Of a stretch of 54,578 nt of DNA, positions 5,390-29,642 are shown piece by piece; position 1 is the first letter of the stretch; each line of letters begins with the position of its first letter. Position numbers and translations under genes: made by a program. The notes below the pieces were generated by a model. The model worked only from the letters and a program-made list of their open reading frames with translations, did not search any database and was not told where the DNA came from. The stretch is taken from positions 1 to 54,578 of IMG/VR virus record IMGVR_UViG_3300025154_000124; one strand, given 5' to 3'. This DNA is from a virus. Taxonomy: Duplodnaviria; Caudoviricetes.

Positions 5390-5956
5390 ATGGAACTCGA
5401 AAAGGAAAGCAAACTCATGGTCTCGCAGCCACGGCAACCGATCGGTAAATCGCAACTCTACACATTGCTCGTGGATGCGACCGGAGATCCGGTACTCGAC
5501 GTTGAGGGGAACAAGCAGGTTGTTGCACTGCAGTCCGTGGATGGTAAATTGCAGGTAACTGCGATCCTGGCTGCCAGCTCGGTAATAGCCGGTAAGTTTG
5601 GGATTGACCAGACTGCCGGACAGAATGTAGTGAGTTTTGGGGCTGCAGCACAGCCAGTTTCGATTACTGGAAGTTTAGCGAATATACCCGTCGAAATACA
5701 AGCATGTAAACCCGAAGTATCTTCTTCTCAAGATTCACAAATAGCCACAACTGCAAAGACATATGCCAGAGCCGAAGGTGCATCCCAAATAGAAGTGTAT
5801 GTAGAGTCTGGATATGCTCGGGTACGTACAGATGGTCAGCCCTGCACATCGACTACAGGTGAGCCTATCGCTTCGGGCTTTGGATCTGCTTGGCAAACTG
5901 GTTCAATTAGTATTTTCTACGTGCAGGAATCAATAGTAACGGTGGTGAGTAGGTAA
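5390..5956 (+). CDS. Putative tail/baseplate accessory protein
   Basis: 188-aa ORF with RBS; TAATG-coupled to the DGR target gene. Confidence 0.65.
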   Translation: MELEKESKLMVSQPRQPIGKSQLYTLLVDATGDPVLDVEGNKQVVALQSVDGKLQVTAILAASSVIAGKFGIDQTAGQNVVSFGAAAQPVSITGSLANIPVEIQACKPEVSSSQDSQIATTAKTYARAEGASQIEVYVESGYARVRTDGQPCTSTTGEPIASGFGSAWQTGSISIFYVQESIVTVVSR

Positions 5957-7311
5957 TGCTACAGCGTGACTTATTTCGCAAACAATTTGCCGTAGCAAGC
6001 GATGTGATAGTGCATGATGTGTATGGGGTATCATGGGATAAAACAGCATCCCCGATACTAACTCGCACGGATTCAGCCCTCGGATTAGTCGCTAACGCAG
6101 GGATAGGCAATGGAGTAGTCCAAAACGATTTTGACAACATACCCTTATTTAAAGCCATCCACGAGGTAACGGACGATTTGGGGAATGTGTTTATACGTAT
6201 ACCCAAATTCTACATCCGGAAAACAGACAGTGCAGGACTTAAAACCGTGCAAGTTTGTGGGACAAAAAGACCTGGCTTTTATCGTCCGTGGTGCTTTTGG
6301 GACTTTACGAACGGCAAGGAATTGCCCTATATCGACGTAGGAAAGCACAAGGCATCTCTGGGAGTTGGTAATAAGCTAGAATCAAAGCCCGACTTGTACC
6401 CGCTAATTAATAAAAACATCGTTGACTTTAGGACTTACGCTCGTAACAATAATGTCGATGGGGCAAAAGGGTACCAACAGTTAGATACCCACGTTATCGA
6501 TGTCCTGCAAACTTTGTTCAGGGTTGAATTCGCAACGTTAAATTCACAAGCAGTTATGCAGGGATTCACCGCTGGGCAATACACAGCCACACATTTGGCA
6601 ACTGTGGCCGAAGGTAACACTAACAGAATTGTCTTAGCAAACGCATACGCAGACCTCTACCGAGTTGGTCAGGCGATTTCCGTCGGAACATCACAAGGCG
6701 GCAACCAGATATTCTATGGACGGACAATAACGTCCATAGATGTTTACGACGCAAGTAACAAGGCAATTAGCTTCGACGGCACCCCTGTGAATATCGCTAT
6801 TGGCAACATGCTGTACAATACAGGGTGGAAAAACGGATTCGCCAGTGGCATAACAGCAACAAGCGGCAGTTTAGTTACTAACGATGGGAAGTACCCGTGC
6901 ACCTACCGAGGTATCGAATCTCCGCTTGGAGACGTGTGGCAGTTTGTCGATGGTTATAACATAAACGAGAGGCAAGCGTGGATTGCTAAAAACGCGGCAG
7001 ATTATGCCAGCAATGTCTTTGCTAGTCCGTATGAGCAATTAGGTTATGTAAACGGAGCGGTAGACGGCTATCCGAAGGAAATGGGATATGATCCAAACAA
7101 CCAATTTGCCGAGCTGCCATCTGTAGTAGGCGGTGCAAGTACAACGTATTACAGCGATTACTACTACCAGGCTACTGGGCAACGCATTGCCCTCTTCGGT
7201 GGTTCCTGGGTCTATGGCGCGAGTGCGGGCCTTTCGTACTGGAGCTTGGGCAATTCCTCGTCGTATGCGAGTGTGGGCGTCGGCGGGCGGCTTCTTAAGA
7301 AACCTCTTTAG
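5956..7311 (+). CDS. DGR target protein, probable receptor-binding/tail protein with C-terminal CLec-like variable domain
   Basis: VR lies at the 3' end. GIESPLGDVWQFVDG resembles the GNVWEW motif, and GGSW...GGRL matches the C-terminus typical of DGR CLec targets. Located in the tail module. Confidence 0.9.
   Translation: MLQRDLFRKQFAVASDVIVHDVYGVSWDKTASPILTRTDSALGLVANAGIGNGVVQNDFDNIPLFKAIHEVTDDLGNVFIRIPKFYIRKTDSAGLKTVQVCGTKRPGFYRPWCFWDFTNGKELPYIDVGKHKASLGVGNKLESKPDLYPLINKNIVDFRTYARNNNVDGAKGYQQLDTHVIDVLQTLFRVEFATLNSQAVMQGFTAGQYTATHLATVAEGNTNRIVLANAYADLYRVGQAISVGTSQGGNQIFYGRTITSIDVYDASNKAISFDGTPVNIAIGNMLYNTGWKNGFASGITATSGSLVTNDGKYPCTYRGIESPLGDVWQFVDGYNINERQAWIAKNAADYASNVFASPYEQLGYVNGAVDGYPKEMGYDPNNQFAELPSVVGGASTTYYSDYYYQATGQRIALFGGSWVYGASAGLSYWSLGNSSSYASVGVGGRLLKKPL
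7187..7290 (+). repeat. DGR variable repeat (VR)
   Basis: 104-nt ungapped match to 7382-7485 with 17 mismatches, each opposite an A in TR (11 A>G, 5 A>T, 1 A>C). Confidence 0.96.
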
Positions 7312-7316
7312 GGGGT

Positions 7317-7338
7317 TTGGGGGCGCGCACGCCTCCAA
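7317..7338 (+). other. GC-rich hairpin/cruciform downstream of VR/IMH
   Basis: TTGGGGGCG-CGCA-CGCCTCCAA: 9-bp stem with one G-T, 4-nt loop, just after the target stop codon. Confidence 0.75.
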
Positions 7339-7362
7339 TAAGGTAACGAGACAACAGAACAT

Positions 7363-7616
7363 AGGGATATAGGGTGCATGCTTGCCCACTTCGGTGGTAA
7401 CTGGAACAATGGCGCGAATGCGGGCCTTTCGTACTGGAACTTGAACAATTCCTCGTCGAATGCGAATGTGAACATCGGCAGGCAGACTCTTATTAGAAAC
7501 TTTCAAAACTATTTGCATCCTATATTCCTCACCCCTTGGTGGAAATTTCGCCGCGAAGAACAGGGATTAGTAGGTTTCTCGAAATTCCCTGAGGCTAATA
7601 AGAAGGTAGGAATTTT
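7363..7616 (+). ncRNA. Predicted structured DGR template RNA (TR plus flanks)
   Basis: 7363-7378 pairs with 7514-7529 (16 bp, two G-U). A further stem is CAGGGA/TCCCTG at 7561-7591. Ends are approximate. Confidence 0.6.
7382..7485 (+). repeat. DGR template repeat (TR)
   Basis: AAC/AAT-rich copy of VR with 25 adenines; diverges from VR at non-A positions from 7487 (IMH vs IMH*). Confidence 0.96.
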
Positions 7617-8681
7617 GTGAAACGGGTAGGTTATCTCTTTGAAAAAGTGTGTGAGCTTGAAAATATAAAGCAAGCAATCATTAAGTCATCTCTCGGAAAA
7701 AGAAACCAAAAGAGGGTCAAGTATGTCATGGATAACATGGATACACATGCAGTTAAAATACGAAATTTGTTGTTAGATAAGAAGTATATCCCGTCTCCGT
7801 ATGACGTTAAAACAATCCAAGATGGAGCCACGAAAAAGACTCGCACTATCCATAAGCCCCGATATTTCCCGGATCAAATTATTCATTGGGCACTAATGCT
7901 GCAACTTCAACCGGTGATCATGAAAGGTATGTATGAATTTAGCTGCGGAAGCATTCCTGGAAGAGGTACTAGTTATGGGCAGAAGATTTTGAGGAAGTGG
8001 CTGGATACCGATTATAAGGGTACCAAGTATTGCCTCAAGATGGATATATCTAAGTTTTACCCTTCGGTCGATAATGAAATCCTGAAAGAGATGTTCAAGA
8101 AAAAGATCAAGGATGGTGATTGCCTGTGGTTAATTGATAGCATCATAGACAGTGCCGATGGGTTGCCAATAGGTAACTATACAAGCCAGTGGTTCTCGAA
8201 TTTCATTCTACAAGGCCTAGATCATTACATCAAAGAAAAGCTAGGCGTGAAATATTATGTGAGGTATGTCGATGATCTAGTTCTACTTGGAAGCAACAAG
8301 AAGAAATTACACCTTGCGAGGAAAATGATCTCCGAACACCTCAATAGTATAGGCTTGCAGCTCAAGGGGAATTGGCAGGTTTCTAAGGTTAGCGATAGGG
8401 ATATCGACTTCTTAGGGTTTAGGTTTTTTAGAGATAAAACCATCCTGAGAAAGCGAAATGCTCTAAGAATTCGTCGCAGAATAAAGAAAATCGGCAGGAA
8501 AAGGGAATTAAGCCTTAAAGATGCTTGCGCGGTCATATCGTACTGGGGATGGATCAAGAGAAGTAACAGTTTTAACTTTTACAATAAACACGTTAAGCCA
8601 ACGATCAGCGTTGGGCGTGCTAAGAAAGTGGTGAGCATATATGCCAGACGAGAAGCCATACGTTTACGCTCCGATTTTTGA
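7617..8681 (+). CDS. DGR reverse transcriptase
   Basis: KMDISKFYPS, GLPIGNYTSQ (DGR-type GxxxSQ), YVRYVDD and IDFLG motifs; 354 aa, basic; no maturase/endonuclease domain. Confidence 0.95.
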   Translation: MKRVGYLFEKVCELENIKQAIIKSSLGKRNQKRVKYVMDNMDTHAVKIRNLLLDKKYIPSPYDVKTIQDGATKKTRTIHKPRYFPDQIIHWALMLQLQPVIMKGMYEFSCGSIPGRGTSYGQKILRKWLDTDYKGTKYCLKMDISKFYPSVDNEILKEMFKKKIKDGDCLWLIDSIIDSADGLPIGNYTSQWFSNFILQGLDHYIKEKLGVKYYVRYVDDLVLLGSNKKKLHLARKMISEHLNSIGLQLKGNWQVSKVSDRDIDFLGFRFFRDKTILRKRNALRIRRRIKKIGRKRELSLKDACAVISYWGWIKRSNSFNFYNKHVKPTISVGRAKKVVSIYARREAIRLRSDF

Positions 8682-8826
8682 GTTTGACCAATTAACGCAG
8701 TATCTTACGCAAATACCACCCGTTGACATGGGAGATCATTATTTTGTTGGTATTGCCGTAATGACAGCGTCTTCGGTTTTTGATGATGAGCTTGAGGATT
8801 TACTATTAGCCGAAATGGGGGCCTAA
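8641..8826 (+). CDS. Small hypothetical protein (possible tail-fibre assembly-type)
   Basis: 61-aa acidic ORF overlapping the RT 3' end. Confidence 0.5.
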   Translation: MPDEKPYVYAPIFEFDQLTQYLTQIPPVDMGDHYFVGIAVMTASSVFDDELEDLLLAEMGA

Positions 8827-15605: not shown

Positions 15606-16127
15606 TTATGGGGTAACTGTAATTGTTTTATCGGTCATAACATTTCCTAGGCTGTCGTGTGCAAAAATTTTTACAGACGTTATCTTACTAGATGTCTCTA
15701 CGGGGGCCACAACAATAAGGCCTTGCAACGTGGAACCTGTAGCGGTGTCTGTGCCGGTTACCGTGTTTAATACGGATAGGGCACCGGCAGCTGGAGCGGC
15801 TGCAATAGCCGGTATAGTAGTTAAGCCTGTAAATGGATTTTTTATTGCATTAGTAGAATCGTTAGTCGCGATGCCAGTAAACTGATTAAAAATATCGGTT
15901 CCAACGGCACTACCGGTTAGTTCGGCGCTAACCCAGCTTGATATTCTGCTCCGGACATATCCCTCAACCATTCTTTGGTTTGAGTCAATCCCCACAGACT
16001 TAGCTGTAGTTTTGATAATCCCAACCTTCGGCACAATCACGATTGCCAGGATGCCGATAACCGCAATAACGATCATGAGCTCAATAAGAGTGAATCCACT
16101 GTCCCTTTTTCGTTTCATTTCATCCAT
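15606..16127 (-). CDS. Type IV pilin / prepilin-type N-terminal cleavage-methylation protein
   Basis: Class III signal KRKRDSG|FTLIELMIVIAVIGILAIVIVP with Glu at +5. Confidence 0.93.
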   Translation of the reverse strand: MDEMKRKRDSGFTLIELMIVIAVIGILAIVIVPKVGIIKTTAKSVGIDSNQRMVEGYVRSRISSWVSAELTGSAVGTDIFNQFTGIATNDSTNAIKNPFTGLTTIPAIAAAPAAGALSVLNTVTGTDTATGSTLQGLIVVAPVETSSKITSVKIFAHDSLGNVMTDKTITVTP

Positions 16128-22433: not shown

Positions 22434-23093
22434 TCACTCCTTAGACGTATGTTTTGCTGGCCTGAAGTGTCCCATATAAATTCCACATATACTCACTTGA
22501 TTTGGTAAGACTTCGATAGTCTTATGTTTGGGGTTTTCTGGTGCTAACTTTATTTGTGGTGATCCTTCCGACCACTTAATGCGTTTCAACATTCCCTCCT
22601 CGTCGCCGTTAATAAGCGCCGCAACGATTTGCCCATTGTGATCAGCCCATTGTGCGTAACGCATATAGACTATATCCCCTGATTCGATACCAGCGCCAAC
22701 CATACTGTCCCCCTTAACCTTCAGGGCATAGTCTGGTTGTTGGTTACTCAAGAAAGGGTAATGGATGTAGTCTTCAACATTCTGCTCAGCCGTTAGGCCT
22801 TCTCCTGCGCAGATTGTACCTATAAGAGGTATTGACTTATAGGTTTGAGATTTTTTAAGCGAAGAGTTTATATCTGATTTTGGAATATTTAATGCATCTG
22901 ATATTTTCTGTAGATTTCCGGGAGACATTAACGTTTTACCTAAAACATAGTCCGAAATAGTACTTGTCGATAATCCTGTTTTATCACTTAGCTCAGTTTG
23001 ACTAACACCTTTAAGGTGCAGTATTTGTTTAAGGTTGATGGAGATATCTTTAATCATTCCTATCTCAACCTCAGTGTATTTACTCCGTGCCAT
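22434..23093 (-). CDS. CI/LexA-like repressor (HTH + S24 peptidase)
   Basis: N-terminal HTH; IPLIGTICAG cleavage site; VKGDSM and MLKR catalytic motifs. Confidence 0.93.
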   Translation of the reverse strand: MARSKYTEVEIGMIKDISINLKQILHLKGVSQTELSDKTGLSTSTISDYVLGKTLMSPGNLQKISDALNIPKSDINSSLKKSQTYKSIPLIGTICAGEGLTAEQNVEDYIHYPFLSNQQPDYALKVKGDSMVGAGIESGDIVYMRYAQWADHNGQIVAALINGDEEGMLKRIKWSEGSPQIKLAPENPKHKTIEVLPNQVSICGIYMGHFRPAKHTSKE

Positions 23094-29102: not shown

Positions 29103-29270
29103 AGCAAGGTAAAGCACCAACGCGAGCGCAAGAGATCAGACTCAAATCCCTACGACTCATTCCCGAGAATTGGTTAGTAGTTAGGGACTGCCCTACGTGT
29201 TTCGTCATTATTCATCGGGTGTCGAAAAAGGTTCGAACACTTGACTTGCAGCCAAGAAAGGAGAATTCAA

Positions 29271-29642
29271 TTGGATCAACTAGAACTCGAAGTAATCAAC
29301 ATCCTGCGAGAACTCGGAATACCTGCACATATCAAGGGTTATCGGTACATCATAGCCGCGGTTAAATACCTTCGCAAGAATCCAAACTCCATCTATCACG
29401 TGATCAAAGAACTCTATCCAGAGGCCGGAAAATCGTGTGGCGAAGAAAAAACCAACCGTGTCGAAAGAGGCATTCGCCACGCGATTAGCCTGGCTTCCTC
29501 CGATGACAACACATGGCTCAAAGTGCTCGGCAGAGTTGGACCGATGCCAAATGGAGAGTTCTTGGCAGCGTTGGACGAGACAATACGGATTAAGGCGGCA
29601 AGTAATCCTGACAAGCTGGAAGAGCGCATTCGTGAAGAGTAA
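29271..29642 (+). CDS. Stand-alone Spo0A C-terminal DNA-binding domain protein
   Basis: ELGIPAHIKGYRY, KELYP, RVERGIRHAI and PNGEFLA match the Spo0A effector domain; no receiver domain; TTG start after AAGGAG. Confidence 0.9.
   Translation: MDQLELEVINILRELGIPAHIKGYRYIIAAVKYLRKNPNSIYHVIKELYPEAGKSCGEEKTNRVERGIRHAISLASSDDNTWLKVLGRVGPMPNGEFLAALDETIRIKAASNPDKLEERIREE

Follow-up and report, generated by a model that had tools for sequence, protein, structure and literature searches.

The window, by which we mean the whole stretch of DNA analysed here, is a virus record of 54,578 bases with an estimated completeness of 70%. It carries a diversity-generating retroelement (DGR) within a module of tail and lysis genes, with genes for a distal tail protein and Prophage_tail upstream, and genes for a holin and an amidase located 3' of the reverse transcriptase (RT) gene. 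The parts of the locus are the following:

5956..7311, + strand: target gene, encoding a phage tail protein of 451 aa (open reading frame; phrog_5302 "tail protein", E 1.4e-50)
7187..7307, + strand: VR, found as a direct repeat of the TR (111 nt at 83%)
7318..7338, + strand: GC-rich hairpin just past the stop codon of the target gene, with a stem of about 9 bp and a 4-nt loop (minimum-energy fold)
7382..7502, + strand: TR, 121 nt with 31 adenines (direct repeat and TR/VR alignment)
7617..8681, + strand: DGR reverse transcriptase, 354 aa, GTG start (Pfam RVT_1, E 5.2e-14; phrog_1423, E 7.7e-107)

The gap between the tail gene and the RT gene measures 305 nt and contains the TR, whereas the VR forms the 3' end of the target gene (5956–7311), its own end at 7307 being an estimate (TR end minus 195). 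A local alignment of TR and VR covers 119 columns at 83% identity, and 18 of its 20 mismatches fall at TR adenines. The locus is a DGR: an RT gene lies beside the TR, a target gene carries the VR at its 3' end, and the two repeats differ mainly at TR adenines. No Pfam family was found for the 451-aa target protein, and a promoter and terminator scan of 7150–7700 returned no site on the + strand. Two open reading frames that overlap the TR and the RNA element described below, at 7378–7620 (+ strand, 80 aa) and 7039–7518 (− strand, 159 aa), are most likely not genes. At the site of the 7318–7338 hairpin, a G-run/C-run hairpin is present in most relatives (columns 44–70 of alignment A1, see below), and we take it to resemble the hairpin known downstream of the VR in BPP-1. 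Elsewhere in the window, a Spo0A-like C-terminal fragment (29241–29642), a LexA-like repressor (22434–23093) and a prepilin-type protein (15606–16127) suggest that the phage is temperate and that its host is a spore-forming member of the Bacillota.

A contig from another study spans positions 7150–7750 of the same region. Among the differences listed for it (25 of the 31 counted), 18 lie in 7185–7279, and 17 of these are at positions matching TR adenines; none of those listed lies in 7280–7610, and seven lie in 7611–7691. These being contig data, rare variants are invisible in them. The DGR looks active: its VR differs between the two studies at TR-adenine positions, which is evidence of diversification in nature.

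A preliminary description of this DNA had proposed that the TR is looped out, almost exactly, by a 16-bp helix with two G-U pairs. All of these pairs were confirmed, between the following two strands:

7363..7378, + strand: 5' strand of the long-range helix, a duplex of probable cPRT-Stop type (complementarity, covariation and RNAalifold)
7514..7529, + strand: 3' strand of the long-range helix, ending one base before the RT-18 RNA (complementarity, covariation and RNAalifold)

The helix consists of 16 consecutive pairs, 14 of them Watson–Crick and two G.U (7366.7526 and 7374.7518), with the G on the + strand in both. Its arms, 16 nt each and 135 nt apart, are 88% complementary as DNA, and the looping out is indeed close to exact, since the TR (7382–7502) begins 3 nt past the 5' arm and ends 11 nt ahead of the 3' arm. 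The minimum-energy folds of 7312–7620 and of 7355–7612 both include the helix, and the arm sequence recurs in the window only as its partner and at one site with three mismatches. The duplex scored 36, whereas 200 shuffles of the 3' arm averaged 17.5 and did not exceed 30. The folding energy of the region was not unusual relative to shuffled sequences (z −1.26 for 7312–7620, −0.93 for 7355–7612 and −0.25 for the minus strand). Taken from the window alone, the helix is only modestly above chance, and the decisive evidence is comparative.

Directly after the 3' arm lies a second conserved RNA, whose elements are listed here together with their conservation in alignment A1:

7530..7605, + strand: Rfam RT-18 RNA (RF03021), 65.6 bits (gathering score 41.3, E 1.7e-10)
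7530..7541, + strand: P1 hairpin, 4 bp with a tetraloop, putative counterpart of BPP-1 Sp71–78 (100% of cells paired)
7542..7545, + strand: unpaired GAAA, putative counterpart of BPP-1 Sp79–81 (GAA); A7543–A7545 invariant in 34/34
7561..7591, + strand: P3 stem around UAGUAG and CGAAA interior loops (89.5% of cells paired)

The RT-18 match extends over the full model (positions 1–84 of 84) and begins one base past the 3' arm; apart from it, only RT-17, weakly, matched the window among the Rfam families. In the conserved 3' tail of RT-18 (UAAUAAGAAGG, 7596–7619), some 10 nt ahead of the GTG at which the RT gene starts, lies its likely ribosome-binding site, and binding of the RT to its own leader could affect RT translation.

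To place these elements in a comparative frame, viral contigs were scanned with the RT of the window. This matched 96 stretches, 86 of which encode a relative; the best 80 of the 86 were kept, with RTs 26–75% identical to that of the window. Among these best 80, a simple pattern for the P1 hairpin occurred upstream of the RT gene in 50 loci. Removal of two loci with a short upstream region and of four exact duplicates left, with the window, 45 distinct sequences, in each of which the best ungapped pairing partner of the 20 nt preceding the P1 hairpin was sought. In 36 of the 45, the partner found this way forms a duplex of 13–20 bp that ends 0–1 nt before P1 and closes a loop of 125–171 nt; the duplex outscored all 200 arm shuffles in 17 of the 45. 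As for the nine exceptions, one locus (L026) has the same arms as another (L024) and the search chose another copy; in six (L044–L048 and L056) two hairpins inserted in the 3' strand interrupt the helix, by eye; and for two (L061 and L062) no 5' partner was placed, the P1 hairpin being present. The sub-clade with this interrupted 3' strand comprises L044–L048, L056 and L063, with RTs about 40% identical to that of the window; by eye, it keeps the AGGG/UCCU end and a 10-bp distal part, giving a multi-way junction (e.g., L045:2700–2930).

Alignment A1 consists of the window and 33 of these loci, aligned with MAFFT without structure input. Left out were the short loci (L001 and L002), the duplicates (L012, L022, L031 and L063), three near-duplicates (L021, L025 and L027) and the eight loci without a flush ungapped duplex (L044–L048, L056, L061 and L062), the last of these omissions favouring the structure. 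In A1, the helix pairs in 87.9% of 544 cells, compared with 38.1–55.1% when the 3' partner is slid by 1–3 columns. Double changes occur in 13 of the 16 pairs, and the 101 double-change cells compare with 30.4 in shuffles. The covariation score of the helix was 0.551, against 0.223 in shuffles, and was reached by none of 500 shuffles; the RT-18 stems scored 0.670 on the same alignment. RNAalifold recovered 12 of the 16 helix pairs de novo, together with P1 and P3. The check that the preliminary description had named, covariation on the flanks of related DGRs, thus came out positive, the helix being conserved and covarying in 34 loci.

In 32 of the 34 loci, the loop enclosed by the helix is a TR that differs from an upstream VR mainly at adenines, the exceptions being L024 and L026; overall, 520 of 646 mismatches between loop and VR are at A. 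From the 5' arm to the TR start the median gap is 3 nt (34 loci), and from the TR to the 3' strand the distance ranges from −2 to 25 nt in the relatives. On these comparative grounds, we regard it as confirmed that the 16-bp helix looping out the TR is real and conserved, and that it is part of what must be a functional RNA.

Of the further stems mentioned in the preliminary description, the two fared differently. The one formed by CAGGGA and TCCCTG (7561–7591) is P3 of RT-18 and covaries, with double changes in 6 of its 7 pairs, and the AGUA (7569–7572) and AA (7582–7583) of its loops are invariant. P1 likewise has double changes in 3 of its 4 pairs (A1, 34 sequences). The TTCG-CCG-CGAA hairpin (7547–7557), in contrast, is not conserved, since 33.9% of its cells pair, compared with 34.8% in shuffles.

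The arrangement of the window closely resembles one described for the DGR of BPP-1, for which Handa et al (bioRxiv 10.1101/2023.10.23.563531), cited throughout from the part of the preprint available to us, report a cryo-EM structure of the RT–Avd–RNA complex. There, the 3' codons of avd (369–379) pair with Sp59–70, and the resulting avd:Sp duplex, the hairpin Sp71–78 and the unpaired Sp79–81 constitute the "cPRT Stop", in which the pairs G370:C69 and G371:C68 accept A80 and A81 in their minor groove. The cDNA stops just short of the duplex, and no cDNA is made once the avd strand is deleted. Re-forming the duplex by compensatory mutations did not bring activity back, so pairing by itself does not explain everything. 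The RT contacts the duplex sparsely, and mainly contacts the hairpin and adenosines that follow it. A duplex of this type was predicted in 207 of 278 Avd-bearing DGRs (Handa et al, 10.1101/2023.10.23.563531).

For the comparison we took the BPP-1 sequence from GenBank and checked the numbering on TR G117, Sp A56/G57/C58, the UUCG hairpin Sp71–78 and A80/A81. The pairs avd369–372:Sp70–67 of BPP-1 correspond to 7363–7366:7529–7526 of the window, and in both they read A-U, G-C, G-C, G.U. In A1, these first four helix pairs are A-U in 17/34, G-C in 32/34, G-C in 33/34 and G.U in 32/34, and G7364, G7365 and G7366 are invariant or nearly so. In both systems a hairpin follows the duplex (GCUUCGGC in BPP-1, CACCCCUUGGUG in the window), then GAA, and then a stem whose loops are GAUUA (Sp108–112) and GAAA (Sp122–125) in BPP-1 and UAGUA(G) and (C)GAAA in the window. 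There are differences as well. The duplex has 16 bp without a bulge in the window and 11 bp with one unpaired U in BPP-1, and its upstream strand is intergenic in the former, whereas in the latter it is avd coding sequence (the last codons). The upstream strand lies 3 nt from the TR start in the window and 8 nt in BPP-1; the TR lies 11 nt from the downstream strand in the window and 58 nt in BPP-1. In the window the hairpin closes an NCUU loop with 4 bp, compared with UUCG and 2 bp in BPP-1. Finally, BPP-1 has an Avd gene and an Avd-binding stem-loop, whereas the window has neither.

From these shared features we conclude that 7514–7605 is probably homologous to BPP-1 Sp59–139, and consider it very likely that the helix is the homologue of the BPP-1 cPRT Stop duplex, the long-range duplex of the DGR template RNA. 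The preliminary description had treated the helix as new, and in this it was mistaken: the same element has already been described in BPP-1 and predicted in the Avd-bearing DGRs mentioned above. What the window holds is a type of helix already known as the cPRT Stop, here in a compact, Avd-less form that extends Rfam RT-18. In our literature search, which covered Handa et al in its preprint form (10.1101/2023.10.23.563531), that preprint was the sole source to use the term "cPRT Stop", and no paper linked RT-18 to the duplex or described the duplex in Avd-less DGRs. RT-18 and RT-17 were mentioned side by side in one unrelated paper, and neither the Minerva preprint nor a preprint on the E. coli DGR had anything on the element.

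Two functional proposals had been attached to the helix, and both stand in part. As an RT-binding and priming scaffold, it is supported in the sense of a scaffold by the likely homology with the cPRT Stop; the idea that the duplex itself is bound by the RT is not, given the sparse contact in BPP-1. That the helix may define the boundaries of the TR is reasonable for the 5' boundary, since the cDNA of BPP-1 ends just before the putatively homologous duplex.

One could suppose instead that the helix only insulates or stabilises the RNA, preventing mispairing of the template or protecting the transcript, with no role in stopping or positioning the RT. The middle of the helix behaves as a plain structural clamp would, its sequence varying freely in A1 while pairing persists, and two of the pairs, columns 129/327 and 130/326, are often unpaired (12/34 and 14/34 sequences, respectively). 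However, the four pairs adjoining P1 hardly vary in sequence, down to the G.U, and match those of BPP-1, and they are followed by an invariant hairpin and AAA, neither of which a plain clamp needs. We therefore consider a purely insulating role unlikely.

The precursors of rRNAs offer another precedent, in which a functional RNA is bracketed by a duplex that serves as a processing stem. A 16-bp duplex bracketing a functional RNA, as found here, could similarly be cut by a double-strand-specific RNase and free the TR RNA from a longer transcript, and such a role would be compatible with the cPRT Stop reading. Against it, the probable homologue of the duplex in BPP-1 is intact in the active RT complex (10.1101/2023.10.23.563531), the 3' strand abuts RT-18, whose continued linkage to the template is required if priming is to occur in cis, and both the length (13 to 20 bp) and the mismatches of the helix vary. 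Processing is, in our opinion, a quite improbable function of the helix.

The arms are also an 88% inverted repeat, as would suit an element that works at the DNA level, be it an inverted repeat or cruciform serving recombination or homing, or a mobile element's two ends. The wobble pairs, however, are one-sided. Among the 544 cells of A1 there are 87 G.U/U.G and 10 A.C/C.A combinations, and 36 and 7, respectively, once the two wobble columns are set aside; this excess indicates that the selected form is the + strand RNA, as the preliminary description had argued from the two G-U pairs of the window. The same polarity appeared when the elements were combined into a strict composite pattern, in which GGG/UCC (with a G.U as third pair) is continued by at least 9 pairs over the following 10 positions and encloses 90–340 nt, with a hairpin and then AA coming after it. 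Of 73 distinct loci, 33 showed this pattern upstream of the RT gene on the forward strand and 0 on the reverse strand; among 1460 shuffles, 15 did. A looser version requiring at least 8 of 10 pairs was discarded for its high background (13/73 reverse, 329/1460 shuffles). Together with the minus-strand fold (z −0.25), these counts make a role as DNA highly improbable. That the complementarity arose by chance, for which the weak energy z-scores and the 17 of 45 loci beating all arm shuffles might be cited, is scarcely credible in view of covariation in 34 loci that no shuffle reached and of the same place and geometry in 36 of 45.

Matches to the strict pattern include loci whose RTs are only 29–35% identical to that of the window (L064, L066–L068, L070, L072 and L073), and some lie in loci with other Rfam motifs; many of the misses are helices with mismatches or insertions. 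Being strand-specific and rare in shuffles, the composite signature could help to annotate the limits of TRs. Distant relatives of the RT (L060:2850–2947; L074, L076 and L077) carry Rfam RT-4 or RT-2 rather than RT-18, and in L060 and L039–L043 an AGGG...UCCU helix still precedes the motif. A stem with (G/U)AGUA in its 5' loop, (C)GAAA in its 3' loop and a small hairpin at the apex is seen at 7569–7584 of the window, at 2762–2779 of the BPP-1 locus (L082) and at L076:2413–2450, and it is common to the Rfam families RT-18, RT-17, Phage_DGR and RT-2. By analogy with BPP-1, P3 is likely the RT-binding element, and the recurring AGUA/GAAA stem may be a common RT-binding element of DGR RNAs.

Retrons come closest in outline among other retroelements, as in their msr-msd RNA the template is flanked by inverted repeats, and synthesis is primed from a 2'-OH belonging to that very RNA. 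They belong to a different RT clade, yield a different product and have no VR/TR pair, and are not of the same family as DGRs.

Two Rfam families bear directly on the element. The RT-18 model (RF03021) starts at P1 and does not include the long-range helix; in the window, RT-18 lies between a DGR's TR and its RT gene and comes after the helix's 3' strand. Phage_DGR (RF03022), which represents the BPP-1 spacer RNA, has UCCU, a hairpin, AA and then a stem with GAGUA...GAAA loops, like the window, but begins with the Avd-binding stem-loop, which is absent here, and the window falls below its score. Weinberg et al (2017; PMC5737381) introduced RT-1 to RT-19 as motifs found in the vicinity of RT genes; in the portion of that report at hand, only RT-10 is assigned to a DGR, with the speculation that other RT motifs might belong to DGRs. 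The closest named phage is Lactobacillus phage LBR48 (GU967410), whose RT is 53% identical to that of the window. It has an RT-18 of 59.2 bits and, by eye, the same helix flush with P1; the LBR48 helix has two U.U mismatches, and the record has N's near the VR.

The Avd protein, on which BPP-1 depends, was sought in several ways. A six-frame search with PF05635 gave no match in the window record or in any of 29 records related to it, 13 of which have a completeness of 90% or more, Avd-like NCBIfam models did not match any of 82 small ORFs, and Pfam and PHROGs searches of the ORFs adjoining the RT returned no Avd family. A 61-aa ORF overlapping the end of the RT gene (8641–8826, + strand), which belongs to no family, was rejected as an Avd for being acidic and too short. 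Ten related loci keep this ORF immediately behind the RT, and it could be an accessory or a phage gene. In LBR48, a 136-aa ORF after the RT has no Pfam family and no relative among the loci. At the RNA level, the TR is only 11 nt from the 3' strand, which leaves no room for an Avd-binding stem-loop. According to Wu et al (PMC5758913), in the part of the article consulted, Avd is poorly conserved. A very divergent Avd could therefore escape the searches made here, and "no Avd" is to be read as none detectable. Wu et al also list 75 of 372 DGRs without accessory genes, describe a Lineage 3 without avd and suggest an Avd-independent mechanism. The duplex survey of Handa et al (10.1101/2023.10.23.563531), as presented in the accessible part of the preprint, covered only Avd-bearing DGRs, and the BPP-1 RT is reported there to be inactive without Avd. 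As the BPP-1 RT needs Avd and none is detectable in the lineage of the window, part of the mechanism must differ.

These results also bear on the suggestion that the helix could stand in for contacts made by avd sequence or Avd protein in other DGRs. For the sequence this holds literally, an intergenic strand occupying the place taken by avd codons in BPP-1; for the protein, the observations go no further than the lack of a detected Avd gene and of room for its stem-loop.

The remaining element between template and helix is the candidate site of priming:

7503..7513, + strand: spacer from the TR to the 3' strand, 11 nt, candidate site of the priming nucleotide (TR/VR alignment)

When the last 48 nt before the 3' arm were folded in the 34 loci, no conserved template:primer pairing was found. 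A few loci (L003, L006 and L009) have a small hairpin ending 0–2 nt before the 3' arm, and nothing was consistent across all 34. A central step of BPP-1 is thus left without a visible counterpart in the family of the window. By the position of Sp A56 in BPP-1, 3 nt before the duplex strand, our guess for a candidate primer would be A7511, a position that is not conserved.

Taking the helix as the cPRT Stop duplex, its mode of action can be outlined as follows. A + strand transcript would start before 7363 and run through the TR into the RT leader, where 7363–7378 would pair with 7514–7529 and loop out the 121-nt template. The end of the duplex nearest to the RT gene (A-U, G-C, G-C, G.U) would be followed directly by the P1 hairpin and the unpaired adenosines 7543–7545, for which the two G-C pairs probably provide a docking site in their minor groove. 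The module of duplex, P1 and adenosines, together with the RT-18 stem bearing the UAGUAG and CGAAA loops, would be held by the reverse transcriptase, and this would place the 3' end of the TR and a priming nucleotide of the 11-nt spacer in the active site. Synthesis of cDNA would proceed 3' to 5' through the TR, with adenines misread, and would presumably stop at the duplex, setting the 5' limit of the template. The lineage of the window would do so without a recognisable Avd or Avd-binding stem-loop, perhaps independently of Avd.

A broader reading, which we put forward tentatively and with somewhat more doubt than confidence, is that this lineage is a minimal, Avd-independent DGR made of an RT and about 120 nt of non-template RNA, namely the 16-nt upstream strand, the 11-nt spacer, the 16-nt downstream strand and the 76-nt RT-18; linked to it is the proposal that AGGG...UCCU with its G.U, hairpin and AA is a hallmark across RT clades. 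If the lineage is such a minimal DGR, self-primed and adenine-mutagenic cDNA synthesis would need nothing beyond the RT and this RNA, and the longer clamp and the 4-bp P1 would do the positioning that Avd and its stem-loop do in BPP-1. If the hallmark holds, it would reach to RTs of about 30% identity and show where any TR ends on its 5' side. Laboratory mutagenesis tools now rely on the BPP-1 RT and Avd, and for these a DGR with one protein and a short RNA scaffold would be attractive.

For the family itself, Rfam RT-18, published without a function, now has one: it forms the part of a DGR RNA that follows the template, and the RT-18 model omits the 16-bp long-range helix. The cPRT Stop module, G.U included, appears to be kept in a lineage without a detectable Avd or Avd-binding stem-loop. 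Rather than the different mechanism that Wu et al (PMC5758913) propose in the part of their article cited above, these sequence comparisons suggest that Avd-less DGRs may have the same RNA core as BPP-1, with only the Avd part missing.
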